DNA of 64,000 bases from Escherichia phage N2, in sequence record ON645936.1; one strand, 5' to 3'. The notes beneath the pieces are model-generated. The model ran no database searches. It was not told the DNA's origin and was given only the letters and a program-made list of their open reading frames with translations. A program made the translations under genes and the position numbers. Positions 22,246-32,221 of this stretch are shown here, piece after piece (the first letter of the stretch is position 1; each line of letters starts with the position of its first letter).

Positions 22246-22723
22246 AGAAATTTCTATTCCTAAAATGGGTCTTAAACATTATAACATTTTAAAAGATGTT
22301 AAAGGACCCGATGAAAATTTAAAACTTTTGATCGATTCTATTTGTCCAAATTTATCACCGGCAGAAGTTGATTTCGTTTCTATTCATTTATTGGAATTTA
22401 ATGGAAAGATTAAATCTCGTAAAGAAATAGATGGTTATACTTATGACATTAATGATGTTTATGTATGCCAAAGATTGGAATTTCAATACCAAGGAAATAC
22501 ATTTTATTTTAGACCTCCTGGAAAATTTGAACAATTTTTAACGGTGAGCGATATGTTATCCAAATGCTTGCTTAAGGTCAATGATGAAGTTAAAGAAATT
22601 AATTTTCTTGAGATGCCAGCATTCGTTTTAAAATGGGCAAATGACATTTTTACAACTTTAGCAATTCCTGGCCCTAATGGTCCAATAACCGGAATTGGCA
22701 ATATTATTGGATTATTTGAATGA
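22190..22723 (+). CDS. 28: baseplate distal hub protein gp28
   Basis: 177-aa ORF overlapping 3' end of gene 27; synteny. Confidence 0.85.
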
Positions 22724-24492
22724 AAAAGCCACAAGAAATGCAAACGATGCGTAGAAAAGTTATTTCAGATAATAAACCAACACAGGAAGCGGCTAAATCC
22801 GCTTCTAACACTTTATCTGGACTTAACGATATATCTACGAAATTGGATGATGCTCAAGCTGCTTCTGAATTAATTGCTCAAACTGTCGAAGAAAAATCGA
22901 ATGAAATAATTGGAGCAATTGACAACGTAGAAAGCGCAGTGAGTGATACTACTGCCGGTTCTGAGTTAATTGCTGAAACTGTCGAAATTGGCAATAATAT
23001 TAATAAAGAAATCGGTGAATCACTCGGGAGCAAATTAGATAAATTAACAAGTTTACTAGAACAAAAAATTCAGACAGCTGGAATTCAACAGACGGGAACT
23101 AGTTTAGCTACGGTTGAAAGCGCTATTCCTGTTAAAGTTGTTGAGGATGATACAGCTGAATCTGTGGGTCCTTTATTACCGGCTCCTGAAGCAGTTAATA
23201 ATGATCCTGATGCTGATTTTTTCCCTACCCCTCAGCCAGTTGAACCTAAACAAGAATCGCCAGAAGAAAAACAGAAAAAAGACGCATTTAACTTAAAATT
23301 ATCTCAAGCTTTAGATAAATTAACGAAGACTGTTGATTTTGGATTTAAGAAATCTATTTCAATTACTGATAAAATATCAAGCATGCTATTTAAGTATACC
23401 GTCAGTGCTGCTATTGAAGCTGCTAAAATGACAGCAATGATATTGGCTGTTGTTGTCGGAATAGACCTGTTGATGGTTCATTTCAAATATTGGTCAGATA
23501 AATTTTCACAGGCTTGGGATTTGTTTAGTTCAAACTTTACTAAATTCTCTAGCGAAACCGGAACATGGGGTCCTTTATTACAGAGCATCTTTAGTTCTAT
23601 TGATGAAATTAAAAAATTCTGGGAAGAGGGAGATTGGGGTGGTTTGACGGTAGCTATTGTAGAAGGGCTTGGAAAGGTTCTTTATAATTTAGGTGAACTT
23701 ATTCAGCTTGGAATGGCTAAATTATCTGCGGCAATTCTTCGAGTTATTCCTGGTATGAAGGATACTGCTGATGAAGTAGAAGGAAGAGCACTAGAAAATT
23801 TCCAAAATACTACAAATGCTTCTCTTAGCAAAGAAGACCAAGAAAAAGTTGCAAATTATCAATATAAAAGAATGAATGGAGACCTTGGTCCGATAGCAAA
23901 AGGGTTAGACAAAATTGCGAACTGGAAAACTCGTGCATCTAACTGGATTCGTGGTGTTGATAATAAAGAAGCACTAACGACTGATGAAGAGAGAGCAGAG
24001 GAAGAAGAAAAATTAAAGCAACTTTCTCCGGAGGAAGCTAAAATTGCTTTAATGAAAGCTAATGAAGCTCGTGCTGCTATGAATCGTTTTGATCAATATG
24101 CCGATTCAGCTGACATGAGTAAAGATTCAACGGTTAAATCAGTTGAAGCTGCCTATGAAGACCTTAAAAAACGGATGGATGACCCGGATTTAAATAATTC
24201 ACCGGCAGTTAAAAAAGAACTTGCTGCTAGATTTTCTAAAATTGATGCTACTTATCAAGAGCTCAAGAAAAATCAGCCTAATGCCAAACCTGAAACTTCT
24301 GCTAAATCGCCAGAAGCAAAACAAGTCCAGGTTATTGAAAAGAACAAAGCACAGCAAGCTCCTGTTCAACAAGCATCTCCTTCGATCAATAATACTAATA
24401 ATGTTATTAAGAAAAATACTGTCGTTCATAATATGACACCCGTAACGAGCACGACTGCTCCTGGTGTATTTGATGCGACTGGAGTTAATTAA
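22720..24492 (+). CDS. 29: baseplate hub / tail length tape-measure protein gp29
   Basis: 590-aa ORF; synteny. Confidence 0.9.
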   Translation: MKKPQEMQTMRRKVISDNKPTQEAAKSASNTLSGLNDISTKLDDAQAASELIAQTVEEKSNEIIGAIDNVESAVSDTTAGSELIAETVEIGNNINKEIGESLGSKLDKLTSLLEQKIQTAGIQQTGTSLATVESAIPVKVVEDDTAESVGPLLPAPEAVNNDPDADFFPTPQPVEPKQESPEEKQKKDAFNLKLSQALDKLTKTVDFGFKKSISITDKISSMLFKYTVSAAIEAAKMTAMILAVVVGIDLLMVHFKYWSDKFSQAWDLFSSNFTKFSSETGTWGPLLQSIFSSIDEIKKFWEEGDWGGLTVAIVEGLGKVLYNLGELIQLGMAKLSAAILRVIPGMKDTADEVEGRALENFQNTTNASLSKEDQEKVANYQYKRMNGDLGPIAKGLDKIANWKTRASNWIRGVDNKEALTTDEERAEEEEKLKQLSPEEAKIALMKANEARAAMNRFDQYADSADMSKDSTVKSVEAAYEDLKKRMDDPDLNNSPAVKKELAARFSKIDATYQELKKNQPNAKPETSAKSPEAKQVQVIEKNKAQQAPVQQASPSINNTNNVIKKNTVVHNMTPVTSTTAPGVFDATGVN

Positions 24493-24500
24493 GGAATAAT

Positions 24501-25595
24501 ATGGCAATTGTTAAAGAAATAACTGCTGATTTAATTAAAAAGTCCGGTGAAAAAATTTCAGCCGGACAGAGTACTAAATCAGAAGTAGGAACTAAAACAT
24601 ACACTGCCCAGTTTCCAACTGGGCGTGCTAGTGGTAATGACACTACAGGGGACTTCCAGGTAACAGATCTATATAAGAATGGATTATTATTTACTGCATA
24701 CAATATGTCATCTAGGGATTCTGGAAGTCTTAGATCGATGAGATCTAACTACTCTTCTTCATCTTCGAGTATTTTACGTACGGCCAGAAACACTATCAGT
24801 AATACAGTATCAAAACTGTCAAATGGATTAATATCAGATAATAATTCAGGAACAATAAGTAAAGCCCCTGTCGCAAACATTCTTTTACCAAGATCTAAAT
24901 CTGATGTTGATACATCATCACATAGATTTAATGATGTTCAAGAAAGTCTTATCAGCAGAGGCGGAGGTACTGCTACTGGTGTGCTAAGTAATATTGCTTC
25001 AACTGCAGTATTTGGGGCACTGGAAAGTATAACGCAAGGTATAATGGCTGATAATAATGAACAGATTTATACGACAGCCAGAAGTATGTATGGCGGTGCT
25101 GAGAATAGAACTAAAGTGTTTACATGGGATTTGACGCCACGTTCAACAGAAGATTTAATGGCTATTATTAATATCTATCAATATTTTAACTATTTTTCTT
25201 ATGGTGAAACGGGTAAATCTCAATACGCTGCTGAAATAAAGGGGTATTTAGATGATTGGTATCGTTCTACTTTAATTGAACCTTTATCTCCGGAAGACGC
25301 AGCTAAAAATAAAACGCTATTTGAGAAAATGACATCGAGTTTAACTAACGTTCTAGTAGTTTCAAACCCGACAATTTGGATGGTGAAAAACTTTGGCGCA
25401 ACATCTAAGTTTGATGGAAAAACGGAAATATTTGGCCCATGCCAAATACAGAGCATCAGATTTGATAAAACACCTAATGGTAACTTTAACGGATTAGCTA
25501 TTGCTCCAAACCTCCCTAGTACATTTACTCTTGAGATTACTATGAGAGAAATTATCACGTTAAACCGTGCTTCTTTATATGCGGGGACTTTTTAA
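24501..25595 (+). CDS. 48: baseplate tail tube cap gp48
   Basis: 364-aa ORF; synteny. Confidence 0.9.
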   Translation: MAIVKEITADLIKKSGEKISAGQSTKSEVGTKTYTAQFPTGRASGNDTTGDFQVTDLYKNGLLFTAYNMSSRDSGSLRSMRSNYSSSSSSILRTARNTISNTVSKLSNGLISDNNSGTISKAPVANILLPRSKSDVDTSSHRFNDVQESLISRGGGTATGVLSNIASTAVFGALESITQGIMADNNEQIYTTARSMYGGAENRTKVFTWDLTPRSTEDLMAIINIYQYFNYFSYGETGKSQYAAEIKGYLDDWYRSTLIEPLSPEDAAKNKTLFEKMTSSLTNVLVVSNPTIWMVKNFGATSKFDGKTEIFGPCQIQSIRFDKTPNGNFNGLAIAPNLPSTFTLEITMREIITLNRASLYAGTF

Positions 25596-26560
25596 TGTAT
25601 TCTTTAGAGGAATTTAATAATCAAGCAATAAACGCAGATTTCCAACGTAATAATATGTTTAGCTGCGTTTTTGCGACAACTCCATCAACTAAAAGCTCTT
25701 CGTTGATAAGTTCAATTAGCAACTTTTCTTATAATAACTTGGGTCTAAATTCAGATTGGTTAGGATTGACTCAAGGCGATATTAATCAGGGAATTACAAC
25801 GCTAATTACTGCTGGCACACAAAAACTGATAAGAAAATCAGGGGTTAGTAAATATCTTATTGGTGCCATGAGTCAACGTACAGTTCAAAGTTTATTAGGC
25901 TCATTTACAGTTGGTACATATTTAATTGACTTCTTTAACATGGCATATAACTCATCTGGATTGATGATATACTCCGTAAAAATGCCAGAGAATAGATTAT
26001 CCTATGAAACTGACTGGAACTATAATTCTCCTAATATTCGTATAACTGGGAGAGAATTAGACCCTTTGGTTATTTCATTTAGAATGGATTCAGAGTCGTG
26101 TAATTATCGTGCAATGCAAGACTGGGTTAACGCTGTTCAAGACCCAGTAACTGGACTGCGTGCGTTGCCACAAGATGTCGAGGCAGACATTCAGGTTAAT
26201 CTTCATGCTCGTAATGGATTACCTCATACTGCAGTGATGTTCACCGGATGCATTCCAGTGTCAGTGAGCGCTCCTGAGTTATCATATGATGGAGATAACC
26301 AAATAACTACATTTGATGTTACTTTTGCGTATAGAGTCATGCAGGCTGGAGCAGTTGATAGACAAGCTGCGCTTGAGTGGCTTGAATCTGCTGCTATAAA
26401 TGGCATTCAAAGCGTTCTCGGAAATAGTGGAGGTGTTACTGGACTATCTAATTCGCTTTCACGACTTAGTAGATTAGGAGGAACTGCGGGAAGCATTTCA
26501 AACATTAATACTATGACGGGAATTGTCAATTCGCAAAGTAAAATATTAGGAGCAATATAA
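25595..26560 (+). CDS. 54: baseplate tail tube initiator gp54
   Basis: 321-aa ORF; gp19/gp48-like sequence; followed by bidirectional terminator. Confidence 0.9.
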   Translation: MYSLEEFNNQAINADFQRNNMFSCVFATTPSTKSSSLISSISNFSYNNLGLNSDWLGLTQGDINQGITTLITAGTQKLIRKSGVSKYLIGAMSQRTVQSLLGSFTVGTYLIDFFNMAYNSSGLMIYSVKMPENRLSYETDWNYNSPNIRITGRELDPLVISFRMDSESCNYRAMQDWVNAVQDPVTGLRALPQDVEADIQVNLHARNGLPHTAVMFTGCIPVSVSAPELSYDGDNQITTFDVTFAYRVMQAGAVDRQAALEWLESAAINGIQSVLGNSGGVTGLSNSLSRLSRLGGTAGSISNINTMTGIVNSQSKILGAI

Positions 26561-26564
26561 CAAT

Positions 26565-26590
26565 GGGGACCTTTCGGTCCCCATATTTTT
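26565..26590. terminator. bidirectional terminator between gene 54 and the minus-strand early block
   Basis: GGGGACC-UUUC-GGUCCCC followed by T-rich run. Confidence 0.65.
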
Positions 26591-26879
26591 ATTTACGGAA
26601 TGAAATAAAAGCAGCAACTGAAGCAACTAAACTGTCTTCAATATAAACTTCAATTTTTACCGGAGCTTCTGACTCAAATTTACCTGTTACTACACCTTGG
26701 AAAATGCTTTCAGTCTGCTCTGGCTTTGAAAAATTTTCAGAAGGAAAAATTCCGAACTTTTTATCTGTTCCAAAAATTTTGATAAATTCATCATAAACTG
26801 CTTCATTAAAAGCATTATCAGCAGGAATAACGCCTTCAACTACAAGTTCTTGACCTAAAAAGCGCAAAGAAGATTTCAT
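26589..26879 (-). CDS. hypothetical protein (alt.-3-like position)
   Basis: 96-aa ORF with GAGGA SD; early promoter upstream. Confidence 0.6.
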   Translation of the reverse strand: MKSSLRFLGQELVVEGVIPADNAFNEAVYDEFIKIFGTDKKFGIFPSENFSKPEQTESIFQGVVTGKFESEAPVKIEVYIEDSLVASVAAFISFRK

Positions 26880-26910
26880 TTTATGTTCCTCATGTTATGT
26901 CAGTAAATCT

Positions 26911-26940
26911 ACTATAACACAACACGAGGGACTTGTAAAC
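26911..26940 (-). promoter_or_regulatory. early promoter (-35 GTTTAC, 17-nt spacer, -10 TATAGT)
   Basis: Motifs on minus strand upstream of ORF 26589..26879. Confidence 0.55.
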
Positions 26941-27298
26941 TACATTTTGAACTTTTTAGTACGCGTAATAGGCATGCGTCGATTTTATACTGTTTCATTG
27001 TTTGAAGAGCAGTATCAAAAACCGCATTAATGACACCAATTGGATTTCCACCCAAGTTTTTAAGTTTAACTAATGATAGTTTCTCATTAACACCTATCAT
27101 TACGATATGCATCATTTTATCGCCTGGCTTAACGTTTTTATTTGTATCACCGCCAGAGGTGTATGTACAAAATCTAAATCCAGGAAGCACGCTTTCTTCG
27201 CCGGCTTGAATAGCAAAAATTTGAGGTATTTTATGCTTAGGATTTAAGTTAACAACCGGCGCCGAAGCGCCGTCAAATAATTCTGTAATAAGTTCCAT
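26912..27298 (-). CDS. paralog of the Alt N-terminal domain
   Basis: 128-aa ORF whose sequence parallels Alt residues 2-125 (MELITELFD..NLNPK.KIPQIF..C.YTSGGDTN..GDKMMHIV..MRQYKIDAC). Confidence 0.7.
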   Translation of the reverse strand: MELITELFDGASAPVVNLNPKHKIPQIFAIQAGEESVLPGFRFCTYTSGGDTNKNVKPGDKMMHIVMIGVNEKLSLVKLKNLGGNPIGVINAVFDTALQTMKQYKIDACLLRVLKSSKCSLQVPRVVL

Positions 27299-27301
27299 GA
27301 T

Positions 27302-29398
27302 TTATCCTTGAACGAACTTGTAAGGCATGTTTGTAATATCTATGCAAGACGCAATAATTCCGAGAGATGATTCTGCTTTCTGTTTAACATTTGATGAAAC
27401 AAATGATGCAAAGTCAACTCTGTCTTCTATTTCAATATCACCTGTCATTGCAACTACTTCGCCGGTTTCCATTAGACGGTCACCGTCATAAATTACTGAT
27501 TCGGTGAGTTCTTCCGTAGTCATAACTTCGGCTTGAATGAGTTTTGTATTATTAAATGTTATTCCGTCATTATTAGAAGCATCAGTTATTTTGTTAACTT
27601 TGACCATCAATCCGCGCGGTAGAATAACTTCAGCTTCTGATGCTATTCCGAGACTTCCTGGATATACAACATTAACTTTATGAGCTCCATCAATTGCCCA
27701 TCCTATTTGAACTTTAACATATTCAGGATTTTCTTTATACGCTCTTATTTCGCTTGGATTAATAGTTATTCCTTCTTCATTTTTATCAACCGTTAATTCA
27801 TTGCGAGCTTCTGGTTCTAAAAGACCGATACCAGCATGTGTAATTCCAAAACGTCCAAAAATGATAGGAGTTAAAGAAGTAGATACAAAATTTCTGAAAT
27901 AGAACACTTTATTTTTAACTAGTGCTTCGTATATAGGAGCAGTCATACTTTGAGCACGATAAACTGTAATGCCTTCTGGTATACGGTCACCATTTTCAAA
28001 GGCTGAATCTAAATTATTTATCGCAGATTCAATTTCTTTTTCACTCATTACCTCATATCGTTCTGGATTGTAGCGGCCTAAAAGAAGATTATTGATGTCA
28101 GTATATCCTGCTCCACAATACTCTCTAATGCCGCGCTTTTGTGATGGAGTATATTTAGAACCATCACGGGCAATAGTAATATCAATCATTGGACCTGCAC
28201 CAACTCCAGAAAAACTATAAATCATTCGTTTGAGGAATACAGTTTTTGCTGCGTTCCAGGAATTTTTAGTTATTTCTTCCCAGACTTCATCTGACTGTCC
28301 TTTGCGGGTTTTATTATGTGTATCAAGCCAATTATCTTTATATTCTTCAAAGAATTGATTAACAGCTGCTGCGTATTTCTCTAAACATTTTATTGAAGTA
28401 GTTGGTTCATTTTTGATCGCATTAAGAATTACATCTTTAATTTTTTCAGAAACCTCATCAACCTCACTTTTTGAAACGAATTTATAGTAATGGCGAAGTT
28501 CATTTGTAGTTCCTTCGGCAATAATTTTTGCTGCCTTAGTTTTAGAAGCTAATGAATTAATTCCAAGCTTCATTTCTTCTGCTTCGGGAATTAAAGGAGC
28601 GGTAGCAGGTTTATTAAAATTGGCTGCGGTAGATTCATACTTCTGGAATAATTCGCTTTCAAATCTAGAAGATTCTAATGATTGACTTTGTGCAATTGCT
28701 CTACGGGAAATTTTAACTTTAACGATTACAGCTTGGTCAGAACGTTTATCATTTTCTTGCGCAATAGATGCTGCAATTGCCTCATTTTTAGTTACTTGAG
28801 CTCCAGTATCTTTGTTGATATAAACATCGCCGACCTTCGATTCAACTTTAGTAAAGAGCTCGGTACTAATTTCCGGAACTCCTGGAATGTCTTCTAATGA
28901 TACATTTTTGCGATGTATAAGAATATATGCATACTTTTTATCGTAATCCCAGATTTCCTTAAGAAGGACGTATCTGCCACCTGAACGACTACGGATAAGT
29001 CTATCAGCAATAACTTGAATTTGTCGAGCTTGACCAGCAGTTTTAGACTTAAGAATACGAAGCATACAAGCATCAATTTTATACTGGCGCATCGTCTGCA
29101 TTGCAACAGTAAAAACTGAATTGATATAATTAATTGGGCTTGGACCGAGACCTTTTAATTTAGCAATTGAACCTTTAGCAGTTAATGTAAAAGGAACAAT
29201 ATGCATCATTTTATCGCCCATCTTTAAATCACGGTTAGTATCACCTCCAGATGTATAGGTACATAAACGAAAGCCCGGTTGTTCAATTGCATCATCAACA
29301 TGAACTGAAAAAATTTGTGGTATTTTCTTCTTTGGATTTAAGTTTGTAATCGGAAGAGTAGTATCTTCGTCAAATAATTCTGTAATAAGTTCCATCAT
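27302..29398 (-). CDS. alt: Alt ADP-ribosyltransferase (packaged into the head)
   Basis: 698-aa ORF, T4 Alt-like; TATAAATA late promoter upstream on minus strand. Confidence 0.9.
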   Translation of the reverse strand: MMELITELFDEDTTLPITNLNPKKKIPQIFSVHVDDAIEQPGFRLCTYTSGGDTNRDLKMGDKMMHIVPFTLTAKGSIAKLKGLGPSPINYINSVFTVAMQTMRQYKIDACMLRILKSKTAGQARQIQVIADRLIRSRSGGRYVLLKEIWDYDKKYAYILIHRKNVSLEDIPGVPEISTELFTKVESKVGDVYINKDTGAQVTKNEAIAASIAQENDKRSDQAVIVKVKISRRAIAQSQSLESSRFESELFQKYESTAANFNKPATAPLIPEAEEMKLGINSLASKTKAAKIIAEGTTNELRHYYKFVSKSEVDEVSEKIKDVILNAIKNEPTTSIKCLEKYAAAVNQFFEEYKDNWLDTHNKTRKGQSDEVWEEITKNSWNAAKTVFLKRMIYSFSGVGAGPMIDITIARDGSKYTPSQKRGIREYCGAGYTDINNLLLGRYNPERYEVMSEKEIESAINNLDSAFENGDRIPEGITVYRAQSMTAPIYEALVKNKVFYFRNFVSTSLTPIIFGRFGITHAGIGLLEPEARNELTVDKNEEGITINPSEIRAYKENPEYVKVQIGWAIDGAHKVNVVYPGSLGIASEAEVILPRGLMVKVNKITDASNNDGITFNNTKLIQAEVMTTEELTESVIYDGDRLMETGEVVAMTGDIEIEDRVDFASFVSSNVKQKAESSLGIIASCIDITNMPYKFVQG

Positions 29399-29418
29399 AT
29401 CCTCTCTAGTGTTTATTC

Positions 29419-29426
29419 TATTTATA
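29419..29426 (-). promoter_or_regulatory. late promoter TATAAATA on minus strand (alt)
   Basis: Reverse complement of TATTTATA about 20 nt upstream of alt ATG. Confidence 0.65.
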
Positions 29427-29447
29427 AAATTAAAGGCCTGAAGGCCT

Positions 29448-29636
29448 TTAATAATCTAGTGGTAAGAGAGTACGATATATTTCAAACTTTGGCCCTTTTT
29501 CATAGGCATCAAATGTTTCTGTGAATTTATTATAAGCATATGCATCTACAAATTCGAGAACGATTTGTGATACAGAAGTAGAAACATCTCCACCTTCTTT
29601 TTGAGCCACGACAATTGTTTCTAAGTAAGCTTTCAT
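29448..29636 (-). CDS. hypothetical small protein
   Basis: 62-aa ORF overlapping ligase gene stop. Confidence 0.5.
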   Translation of the reverse strand: MKAYLETIVVAQKEGGDVSTSVSQIVLEFVDAYAYNKFTETFDAYEKGPKFEIYRTLLPLDY

Positions 29637-31093
29637 AGACCAGTTACCTCATGAAAATCACCAAATACATCCTCGAATGTATTAGCTTTAGTTTTATCTT
29701 CACGTAAACGAATCGCAATCGGAAGAAATAATTTAACGTAATCAGTGCGGCCATCAGATTTTAACCAACCGTTGCATTCGCACTCTAGAATTTTTCCAAT
29801 ATAATAATTTTGGTTTTCCATAATGCGAGTACGGTCAAGTTCATGTGATTTTACACCAGCTTTATCTTTTAAGCCTGAACCTGCATTGACTTTAATTTTT
29901 CCACACTCTGATTCAAGAATAAATCCACCAGCTTTAGTAGGGTCTTTACGGTGAGGATAAATTCCTACAATTTTTAAATCAACATCAATTACTTCTTTAA
30001 ATTTATAGAGATTTTTTGAACGAGCATTTTCCCACAATCCATCTGTATTTTTGAGAATAATACCTTCAAGACCTTGGTCAATATACTTTTTATAAATTAC
30101 CTTAGCTTCATCTAGGTTATTTACTACTTGGTTTTCAATTAAAATTACTTTATCATATCCTGATGTCATTTGTTCTAGTTTAGAAAAACGTACATCATAT
30201 TTTAAACGAAACGTCGGAAGACCGTATATTTCTACTAACGGAACATAATCCCAGACCTGAAACTTCATGCATTTGGCTTCTTTTTCGGAAATGGTTCCTT
30301 TTAAGGATTTATTGGCGATTCCATTAGAAGCAGTACGAGATTCCGCTACTTCGGCGAATTCTTTAGCTTTGCTAATTTCAGGAGTGTCAAAAAGAAAATC
30401 TAGGCCTTCTGGTTCCTTTTCAACTTGCTCATGGTATACCAATTCGCCATCGATTAACACGCCTTCTGGATGAATCTGGCGGGCTTCAGCAGTCATTTTG
30501 ATTAACTCTTCCTTAAGAAGATCTAATCCTAGGTATTCATTGCCAGCTCGCGATAAAAGACGAACATCATCTAATTCATCACCTCGGACTTCAGCAAAAC
30601 ACCGAGCTCCATCTGCTTTTAACTGCGCAAAAGCTGGAAATTTGATATTCTTACTAATGCCTTTTTCATCATAAGAACTTGCAAGCATTTGAGGTTGTTC
30701 AGGAATTAAACCTGGCCAAACTTTGTTTGCAATAGATACTGAAGCACCGCATTCAAGGTCTCGCATCATAACTCGACGTAGTACTTCAACATCATCCTTT
30801 TTACCATCGGTGATATACCCAGTTAATTCCTCAATTGCTGCATTTCCAGTCAATTTCCGAGTAGCTAACGTAAATTCAATAAAGTCAAGCATATCGGTAA
30901 TGGTCAGCATTCCAAAACTCTGGGTAGCAATACCAGGCTTAGGCCATTTCTTGATATAATACTGTAACCCACGAGAATAAGTCAGACGATATACTCGTTT
31001 AAGCAATTCATTATCTTTATTCTTTTCAAGAATTGCTTGCTTCTGCTTAGTTGATCCAATAGATGCTATTTCATTCAGAATTTTAAGAATCAT
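29633..31093 (-). CDS. 30: ATP-dependent DNA ligase gp30
   Basis: 486-aa ORF; adenylation motif KADGAR; T4 DNA ligase-like N-terminus. Confidence 0.97.
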   Translation of the reverse strand: MILKILNEIASIGSTKQKQAILEKNKDNELLKRVYRLTYSRGLQYYIKKWPKPGIATQSFGMLTITDMLDFIEFTLATRKLTGNAAIEELTGYITDGKKDDVEVLRRVMMRDLECGASVSIANKVWPGLIPEQPQMLASSYDEKGISKNIKFPAFAQLKADGARCFAEVRGDELDDVRLLSRAGNEYLGLDLLKEELIKMTAEARQIHPEGVLIDGELVYHEQVEKEPEGLDFLFDTPEISKAKEFAEVAESRTASNGIANKSLKGTISEKEAKCMKFQVWDYVPLVEIYGLPTFRLKYDVRFSKLEQMTSGYDKVILIENQVVNNLDEAKVIYKKYIDQGLEGIILKNTDGLWENARSKNLYKFKEVIDVDLKIVGIYPHRKDPTKAGGFILESECGKIKVNAGSGLKDKAGVKSHELDRTRIMENQNYYIGKILECECNGWLKSDGRTDYVKLFLPIAIRLREDKTKANTFEDVFGDFHEVTGL

Positions 31094-31357: not shown

Positions 31358-32221
31358 TTAGAATGCTCCTTGGAAAATATTATCACCACTAGTAAATCTA
31401 TTAAAATACCCTGCATCACCAGGCTTAGTATAACTCCACGTATGGAATGGATTCATATGATACGGGTGTGTATAATATGGATTATATGGATGTGTATAAT
31501 ATGGATTATACGGATTAAATCCAGGAGTTCTCCAGGTAGTGTTCCAGCGAAAAGAATCGTTTTTAATCATCTTTTCAATTACATCTTTTATAGCTTTTTC
31601 ACTATCAAAACTTTCTTTATTTTCCTTTGGTGAAAAAAGCTTATTCTCTACATCGTTCCATGTATAAACTCGCTGAGCAGTTTTTGGAATACTGTCACGT
31701 TCCCCTCGAGCCATCCAATAAACTGGAACATTTAATATTTCACTCGCATGATCGCAGTGGTGAGCGAGATCGTCAATATAACAAATTACGTTATATTTCT
31801 CTTTTGCCTTTTTGAACAACTCTTCTTTTGAAGAATCATGGCCACACATCAGTACTTCTGAGAAGGCACCAGGAAAAAGAGCATTCAAATTAAATTGACG
31901 ATTCAGCAGAGCGTCAATAGAATCACCCAGTGCTGTAACAGCTACAAAATTATAATCTTCTTTTAATTTGTTAATTACACACAGAGCATCTTTATATGGA
32001 GACAAGTAACGAATAAAATCCGAACGATTGTATTTTTCAATTAACTTGACGCCAAGTTCTTCATCACAATTAAAAAGTTTACCAGGAGAAATAAATTTTT
32101 CATCTTGGATCATTTTTAAAATATGTTCCAACGGAAGATTATATTTCTGAGCAAAATAAGGAAGGCCTGATTGCCAGCTTAAGCATACTCCATCAATATC
32201 AGTTAAAATAGTAGGCTTCAT
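31358..32221 (-). CDS. 30.2: HAD-like hydrolase fold protein with C-terminal Tyr/Pro-rich tandem repeat (T4 30.2 position)
   Basis: 287-aa ORF; N-terminal DIDGV motif; NPYYTHPY repeated. Confidence 0.7.
   Translation of the reverse strand: MKPTILTDIDGVCLSWQSGLPYFAQKYNLPLEHILKMIQDEKFISPGKLFNCDEELGVKLIEKYNRSDFIRYLSPYKDALCVINKLKEDYNFVAVTALGDSIDALLNRQFNLNALFPGAFSEVLMCGHDSSKEELFKKAKEKYNVICYIDDLAHHCDHASEILNVPVYWMARGERDSIPKTAQRVYTWNDVENKLFSPKENKESFDSEKAIKDVIEKMIKNDSFRWNTTWRTPGFNPYNPYYTHPYNPYYTHPYHMNPFHTWSYTKPGDAGYFNRFTSGDNIFQGAF
31465..31515 (-). repeat. tandem duplication of a 24-bp unit inside the 30.2-like gene, encoding YNPYYTHP twice
   Basis: Direct repeat tgtgtataatatggattata(t/c)gga x2 on plus strand. 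Confidence 0.6.

Follow-up and report, generated by a model that had tools for sequence, protein, structure and literature searches.

In this study, we analyzed a short open reading frame (ORF) that lies beside the alt gene in a 64,000-nucleotide (nt) stretch of DNA from Escherichia phage N2 (ON645936.1); the whole stretch is called the window below. The window is a Tequatrovirus (T4-like) segment: in a megablast search, positions 26500-29500 were 97-97.5% identical to many T-even phages of Escherichia, Shigella and Yersinia. The ORF (26912..27298, minus strand) starts with ATG and encodes 128 amino acid residues. Its start is located 3 nt past the stop codon of alt (27302..29395, minus strand), which encodes a complete Alt ADP-ribosyltransferase (697 residues from the second ATG) and is a PP01-type allele. 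It should be mentioned that alt in the ORF list begins at 29398 with two methionine codons (MMELITELF; 29393-29398). Because T4 Alt uses the second one, the true start is probably 29395. The downstream neighbor of the ORF is alt.-3 (26589..26879, minus strand; 96 residues, DUF5498), which lies outside the element studied here. The order of genes 54, alt.-3, ORF, alt, alt.1 and 30 is common to the window and T4. Thus, the ORF occupies the position between alt and alt.-3 where T4 possesses alt.-1 and alt.-2. As described below, the ORF is an intact-frame allele of T4 alt.-1 plus alt.-2, and we consider it very probable that it is the 5′ part left over from a second Alt-type ADP-ribosyltransferase gene after a deletion, and that this remnant has no selected function and is decaying neutrally.

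The initial annotation of the ORF, which was made from the sequence alone, proposed that it resembles the first 125 residues of Alt and lacks the catalytic C-terminal region. When the ORF was compared with the adjacent Alt (698 residues with the first methionine) by BLASTP, as that annotation had advised, residues 1-116 matched residues 2-118 of Alt with 73 identities in 117 positions (62%, E = 3e-49). Thus, the similarity is real and far beyond chance. However, it extends over 116-117 residues rather than 125, and the last 12 residues (117-128, SKCSLQVPRVVL) are unrelated to Alt and have no counterpart there. In a Pfam scan, PF03496 (ADPrib_exo_Tox) was found in Alt (residues 379-628, E = 1.3e-35) and in a second Alt-like protein of phage PP01, the paralog described in the next paragraph (residues 416-620, E = 2.5e-20). 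In contrast, the ORF gave no domain match. The catalytic region is therefore absent, as had been proposed, and the ORF does not belong to the Alt/VIP2-type ADP-ribosyltransferases. In an NCBIfam scan, neither the ORF nor Alt nor the paralog had a match. Among the PHROG families, the ORF matched phrog_802 (Alt-like) at residues 1-117, phrog_23015 (the alt.-1 family) at residues 1-56 (E = 1.7e-41) and phrog_15247 (the alt.-2 family) at residues 62-128 (E = 5.7e-49). Thus, one continuous frame in the window belongs to both the alt.-1 and alt.-2 families.

Most relatives differ from the window at this site. In the megablast search, the query 26500-29500 was 100% covered in most relatives, but as two pieces that spanned 4,700 base pairs (bp), compared with 3,001 bp in the window. 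In PP01, a second full-length gene between alt and alt.-3 accounts for the extra DNA; this gene is annotated as "Alt-like RNA polymerase ADP-ribosyltransferase" (YP_010073571, 685 residues). Both genes are still present in most Tequatroviruses, including T2, T6, PP01 and the RB phages, and the full-length 685-residue gene occurs at the same site in about 400 of about 500 Tequatrovirus records. A junction-spanning 191-nt probe was contiguous in 90 of 499 matching phage records, which are database records and not independent lineages, and was split in the rest, as for the full-length gene. This census rests on the GenBank phage collection, and an exact junction search in IMG/VR gave only 2 contigs. 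The paralog is 42% identical to Alt from end to end, and the R, STS and ExE catalytic motifs are kept. Residues 1-116 of the ORF are identical to those of the paralog (PP01 YP_010073571, the T2 copy and RB32 "alt.-2") at 115 of 116 positions, and the ORF protein falls into the 90%-identity cluster of the paralog (772 members including T2). Moreover, the paralog and the ORF share the same upstream sequence, Shine-Dalgarno sequence and position after alt, whereas codons 117-680, including the PF03496 domain, are missing from the window.

The deletion junction was read directly from the side-by-side sequences; an automated repeat search of the PP01 paralog had not highlighted the repeat. Window positions 26500-26959 correspond to positions 1501-1960 of the PP01 locus (L001), and window positions 26951-29500 correspond to L001 3651-6200. 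These two matches overlap by the 9-mer ACTTTTTAG at 26951..26959, which marks the junction. In the PP01 paralog, ACTTTTTAG is found at the 3′ end, where it ends at L001 1960, and a copy with eight of nine matches, ACTCTTTAG, occupies codons 114-116 and ends at L001 3659. The window lacks the 1,699 bp that separate these direct repeats in PP01. On one side of the junction, codons 1-113 of the paralog are retained (26960..27298, minus strand), with 97.8% DNA identity to PP01 L001 3651-4020 compared with about 68% to alt. On the other side, the sequence continues directly with the final 20 nt of the full-length paralog, the C-terminus of which is ...KKFKM in PP01, and then with its 3′ flank. Because 1,699 leaves a remainder of 1 when divided by 3, the reading frame is shifted after the junction. 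The frame-shifted tail (26912..26950, minus strand) consists of 12 codons (SKCSLQVPRVVL) and a stop codon; it passes the ancestral stop codon (26940-26942) and enters former intergenic DNA. The junction sequence GAACTTTTTAGTACGCG is identical in the window, T4 and 12 other sequences, that is, in all 14 deletion-bearing sequences that we aligned. Thus, the window and T4 alt.-1 plus alt.-2 share the junction, the frame shift and the loss of the catalytic domain, and they are the same element.

These observations suggest the following pathway. Between gene 30/alt.1 and alt.-3, the ancestor would have possessed two tandem Alt-type genes, alt and the diverged 685-residue paralog. The loss of 1,699 bp between the imperfect 9-nt direct repeats ACTCTTTAG and ACTTTTTAG would have removed paralog codons 117-680 and, with them, the whole catalytic domain. 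The retained start codon would then read 12 codons in the new frame, past the old stop codon and into the predicted early promoter of alt.-3, and end at 26912. The deletion was probably a single event, given the same junction in all 14 aligned sequences. The remnant is probably still transcribed together with alt, and its intact Shine-Dalgarno sequence may give a 128-residue polypeptide. This product would represent only part of a larger fold and have no selected function, and the remnant would be decaying neutrally. The window would then keep the original post-deletion frame, which T4 and most other carriers would have lost. The initial annotation had offered a relic of tandem duplication as one possibility. 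This idea was essentially right, although the relic derives from a deletion within a complete second gene and not from a duplicated N-terminal piece.

A different origin has been described for T4. According to the T4 RefSeq annotation note, [quoted passage not shown]. Both fragments also appear among the paralogous duplications of alt listed by Nolan et al. 2006 (PMC1524935), who mentioned a full-length duplicate in phage 44RR. In a partial duplication, the copy would have been limited to the front portion of alt, and this lineage would never have possessed a full-length second gene. The alignments contradict this view. The remnant is about 98% like the 5′ end of the paralog and only about 68% like the adjoining alt. 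Furthermore, the last 20 nt and 3′ flank of the paralog follow the junction, the short direct repeat is present at both ends in PP01 and about 400 records possess the full-length gene at the same site. Later insertion of the 685-residue gene is implausible because this gene is Alt-homologous along its whole length. We therefore regard a partial duplication as extremely improbable. Because the 5′ end of the paralog nearly matches the remnant, and because the paralog is Alt-like throughout and has the catalytic motifs, the full-length form is ancestral and the short form is derived.

The reading frame has been broken in most carriers of the deletion. The frame is kept in three of the 14 aligned sequences, which include the window and T4, namely the window, SYGD1 and FL23; the remaining 11 carry at least one of three lesions. 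Altogether, an intact frame was found only in the window, SYGD1, FL23 and FL44. The first lesion is located at codon 6 (27281..27283, minus strand), a GAA that encodes the Glu of the gp21 motif ITE-6. This codon is intact in the window and is changed to TAA in F26, SG1, IME537, fPS-90, 235Ecol030PP and slur03 in the alignment. With a 54-nt allele probe, the exact TAA allele was found in 45 records, and 437 records matched with one mismatch. The second lesion is the loss of one A from the A5 run at codons 54-55 (27135..27139, minus strand). This run is intact in the window, and one A is gone in T4 and most deletion-bearing phages; in the alignment, the lesion is present in T4, RB59, Pu-Krd-SF6, two IMG/VR contigs, F26, slur03, IME537 and 235Ecol030PP. 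The third lesion is a 1-nt loss in the T5 run at codons 93-94 (27017..27021, minus strand), which is intact in the window. It is present in the aligned IME537 and 235Ecol030PP sequences, and five further rows among the best 60 deletion-bearing rows also span 439 nt and may carry it too. Among these best 60 rows, the span was 440 nt in 50, 439 nt in 7 and 441 nt in 3 (two of which are SG1 with the codon-6 stop). Thus, 57 of the 60 have lost 1 or 2 nt, and SYGD1 is the only one with the full-length span and no codon-6 stop. The remnant proteins called in the databases have 92, 67, 66, 64, 62 or 61 residues; the intact 128-residue form was called on 2 contigs and a 129-residue variant on 7. Judged from the sequences, the broken frames across deletion-bearing phages are the signature of a pseudogene.

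This pattern bears on another explanation, in which the ORF encodes a functional stand-alone N-terminal protein. Such a protein would be expressed late, targeted to the prohead core by the MELITE/ITE-6 propeptide and used as cargo, as a decoy or as a competitor for Alt loading. The first two of these roles had been suggested in the initial annotation, which also referred to the involvement of the Alt N-terminus in head packaging. The N-terminus of the ORF, MELITE|L, is identical to the ITE-6 site of Alt, and the ORF thus keeps the (L/I)-x-E motif of a gp21-processed propeptide. Alt loses six N-terminal residues at ITE-6 (by gp21) and 63 C-terminal residues at LTE-619 (PMC5694885), and Ali et al. 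2017 raise a possible targeting role for the Alt propeptides. Furthermore, one paper states that all internal proteins use a capsid-targeting sequence. In contrast, according to a 2023 review of the head, IPII and IPIII are the only core proteins in which the capsid-targeting sequence is conserved. A role of the Alt N-terminus in head packaging is only partly established, and the short propeptide may or may not act as a core-targeting signal. The frequent inactivation of the remnant, including the codon-6 stop in 45 records, speaks against a functional protein.

The extent of the N-terminal module also argues against a stand-alone protein. Word-index homolog searches with the ORF and with Alt residues 1-260 gave only 3 and 5 proteins, respectively, and performed poorly here; therefore, a cluster look-up, a search of representatives and tblastn were used instead. 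The N-terminal region was found almost only at the start of Alt-like proteins of 600-710 residues, in 62 representative clusters by the exhaustive search and in 1,197 phage records by tblastn. Short representatives of the region (141-229 residues) were considered as possible independent stand-alone domains; several of them end abruptly, as would fragments at contig ends or fragments generated by frame shifts. Conservation runs to about residue 240 when Alt is compared with the paralog, and likewise when 52 homologs are aligned. The ORF keeps residues 1-116 only and is thus not a complete module of about 240 residues. PF26846, a label for the N-terminal module, is precomputed for the 92-residue variant of SG1; this model was not among the Pfam models scanned on the ORF. 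In an AlphaFold model of Alt residues 1-260 (predicted local distance difference test 87.4, predicted template modeling score 0.82), residue 116 comes directly after a central strand (109-115), and a helix (123-138) and further strands (142-144 and 155-162) follow. These later elements appear to belong to the same alpha/beta region in the model. The stub therefore looks structurally incomplete, as if cut in the middle of the module, and its last 12 residues correspond to translated promoter DNA.

We also examined signals for expression. A Shine-Dalgarno sequence, AAGGA (27305..27309, minus strand), is located 6 nt before the ATG of the ORF, inside the last codons of alt; it belongs to the start region of the ancestral paralog and is identical in PP01. 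A T4 late-promoter motif, TATAAATA (29419..29426, minus strand), is present upstream of alt. A bidirectional hairpin that resembles an intrinsic terminator (26563..26584) lies between gene 54 and alt.-3, and annotated terminators occupy this place in fPS-90 and Lutter. The minus strand between the late-promoter motif and this hairpin showed no terminator-like site. The remnant is therefore probably co-transcribed with alt. These features, together with the intact frame, would suit a stand-alone protein. In time-resolved omics of T4 (PMC9697503 Table S2), the RNAs of alt.-1 and alt.-2 were present ("middle" class) and the Alt.-1 and Alt.-2 proteins were undetected in the proteomes of infected cells, and T4 lives with the split version. 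For alt.-3, both early RNA and early protein were detected in the same data set. Peptides unique to the 128-residue product are LFDGASAPVVNLNPK and NVKPGDK, and CSLQVPR is a peptide of the tail.

The tail of the ORF overlaps a regulatory element. A promoter of the sigma-70/T4-early type was predicted for alt.-3 at 26911..26939 on the minus strand (TTTACA, 17 nt, TG-n-TATAGT; 10 of 12 matches with TG present). The final 10 codons of the ORF overlap with this site, which lies directly upstream of alt.-3, and in phage Lutter a promoter is annotated at the equivalent position. Thus, the tail is translated regulatory DNA. It might be considered that selection retains this segment for the alt.-3 early promoter, and perhaps for features of the transcript or spacing, and that the frame is incidental. 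The early expression of alt.-3 in T4 and the distal end point of the deletion, which spares the promoter element, are consistent with this idea. However, it covers only about 30 nt, and the other approximately 350 nt have no recognized signal. Moreover, a hybrid Alt-like gene in phage ECML-134 (see below) shows that the 5′ remnant may be missing entirely. We consider non-coding retention very unlikely as the explanation of the ORF; it is compatible with a decaying gene remnant and is not a true competitor.

Four points weigh against the conclusion that the ORF is a neutrally decaying remnant. First, FL23 differs from the window at approximately 20 of 441 nt (about 4.5%) but at only 2 of 128 residues, which alone resembles purifying selection, and FL44 likewise stays in frame at about 4.5% DNA divergence with two changed residues. 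Second, the intact frame and good ribosome-binding site in the window, SYGD1, FL23 and FL44 suggest that a 128-residue protein may be made. Third, the negative result of the T4 proteomics is weak, because small proteins are easily missed and the T4 version is already split. Fourth, the records counted in the census include many re-sequenced T4 stocks and GenBank/RefSeq duplicates. Concerning the first point, full-length paralogs of Shinka, AR1, RB27 and RB3 have 5′ ends that share 98.3-98.9% identity with the haplotype of FL23 and FL44, and the FL23 haplotype is closer to these full-length alleles than to other remnants. Because the haplotype matches functional full-length alleles, its synonymous-rich divergence says nothing about selection on the stub. 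Most likely, the conservative divergence of FL23 and FL44 was imported from functional alleles by recombination, which explains the few amino acid changes among the intact alleles that might otherwise favor a stand-alone protein. An argument based on the ratio of nonsynonymous to synonymous substitutions was dropped, since the FL23 divergence is not independent of the full-length alleles.

Given the broken frames in most carriers, the undetected T4 products and the truncation in the middle of the module, we consider a functional stand-alone protein very unlikely, and the packaged decoy or cargo of the initial annotation is not supported, being unlikely even for the few intact alleles. The same applies to a more specific version, in which phages with the intact frame would make the 128-residue fragment late, package it into the core and trim it at ITE-6, and the fragment would be injected or would compete with Alt for approximately 40 sites in the core; we consider it very unlikely as well. 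If it were true, such competition would alter the dose of injected ADP-ribosyltransferase.

The remainder of the locus can be described briefly. On the minus strand, alt.1 (29448-29636) and the DNA ligase gene 30 (29633-31093) lie upstream of alt. Gene 54 (25595-26560) and gene 29 (22720-24492) are encoded on the plus strand, as are genes 27, 28 and 48, and the gene 30/alt cluster converges on these plus-strand genes. The ORF at the position of T4 30.2 (31358-32221, minus strand; 287 residues) possesses an 8-residue direct tandem repeat, NPYYTHPY NPYYTHPY, near its C-terminus.

Comparison of the alt genes themselves shows that not only the second gene varies. When the window Alt was compared with T4 Alt in blocks of 50 residues, identity was 94-100% over residues 1-250, 24-34% over residues 250-400, 48-64% in the catalytic region and 82-91% at the C-terminus. 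In contrast, the window Alt is 90-100% identical to PP01 Alt throughout. The presence of a T4-type stub beside a non-T4 alt allele points to recombination within this cassette. In ECML-134 (NC_025449.1, L015:3001-5061), a single Alt-like gene of 686 residues is present between alt.1 and alt.-3. Its residues 1 to approximately 150 are 98-100% identical to the window Alt, and the rest is 92-100% identical to the second paralog of PP01. Unequal homologous crossover between tandem paralogs would produce this pattern, which would represent a third state of the locus. We therefore view the alt locus as a two-gene cassette that changes rapidly and recombines. It exists in at least three states, namely two genes, a gene plus a stub, and a hybrid gene. 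Alt variants counter host defenses such as Mokosh (bioRxiv 10.1101/2025.11.20.689424), and the variability of the cassette fits this evidence.

Several database labels in this region should be read with care. Because the 128-residue and 92-residue stubs have no transferase domain, the label "ADP-ribosyltransferase" on them is wrong. In RB32 (DQ904452.1/NC_008515.1), the name "alt.-2" is given to the gene that underlies the match to the 5′ end of the second paralog; in RefSeq, this gene is named "Alt-like RNA polymerase ADP-ribosyltransferase". Thus, the name alt.-2 denotes a 67-residue out-of-frame fragment in T4 and an apparently complete enzyme in RB32. Furthermore, unlikely host labels are attached to T4-type sequences: an alt.-2 entry (MFP9202583.1) and a 355-residue partial Alt fragment are assigned to Enterococcus faecalis. 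"Pseudomonas phage PsgM02F" is 99% identical in this region and, together with the E. faecalis entries, resembles contamination or mislabeling.

Finally, we compared the ORF with known systems. T4 Alt (gpAlt) is a head-packaged, injected NAD+:arginine ADP-ribosyltransferase. The N-terminal 116 residues of the ORF are 62% identical to it, including MELITE with the ITE-6 gp21 site. Unlike T4 Alt, however, the ORF has neither the catalytic domain nor the C-terminal propeptide, and it keeps only about half of the conserved N-terminal module. The same 128-residue sequence is already present in databases, since QUD16148.1 (vB_EcoM_SYGD1, "ADP-ribosyltransferase exoenzyme") and UTQ79515.1 are 100% identical to the ORF. 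A remnant of this kind is a known type of pseudogene and is in itself of little consequence. The comparison with alt.-1 and alt.-2 of T4, which the initial annotation had also recommended, shows that the ORF is the same remnant with its frame intact. T4 alt.-1 (NP_049810, 61 residues) and alt.-2 (NP_049809, 67 residues) occupy the same locus, have the same junction and form the same segment of 386 nt (387 nt in the window), with about 97% DNA identity. In T4, one A is gone from the A5 run at codons 54-55, so that alt.-1 stops prematurely and alt.-2 restarts out of frame, whereas the frame is continuous in the window. The ORF is therefore already known in outline, as the object flagged in the T4 annotation two decades ago. 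In a literature search for alt.-1/alt.-2 as a relic of a deleted full-length paralog, only Nolan et al. 2006 was found. The refinement presented here is the origin by deletion of a full-length paralog instead of partial duplication. Thus, a more precise wording than "duplication of the first part of alt" is possible for the T4 note: alt.-1 and alt.-2 are the leftovers of a complete second Alt-type enzyme.
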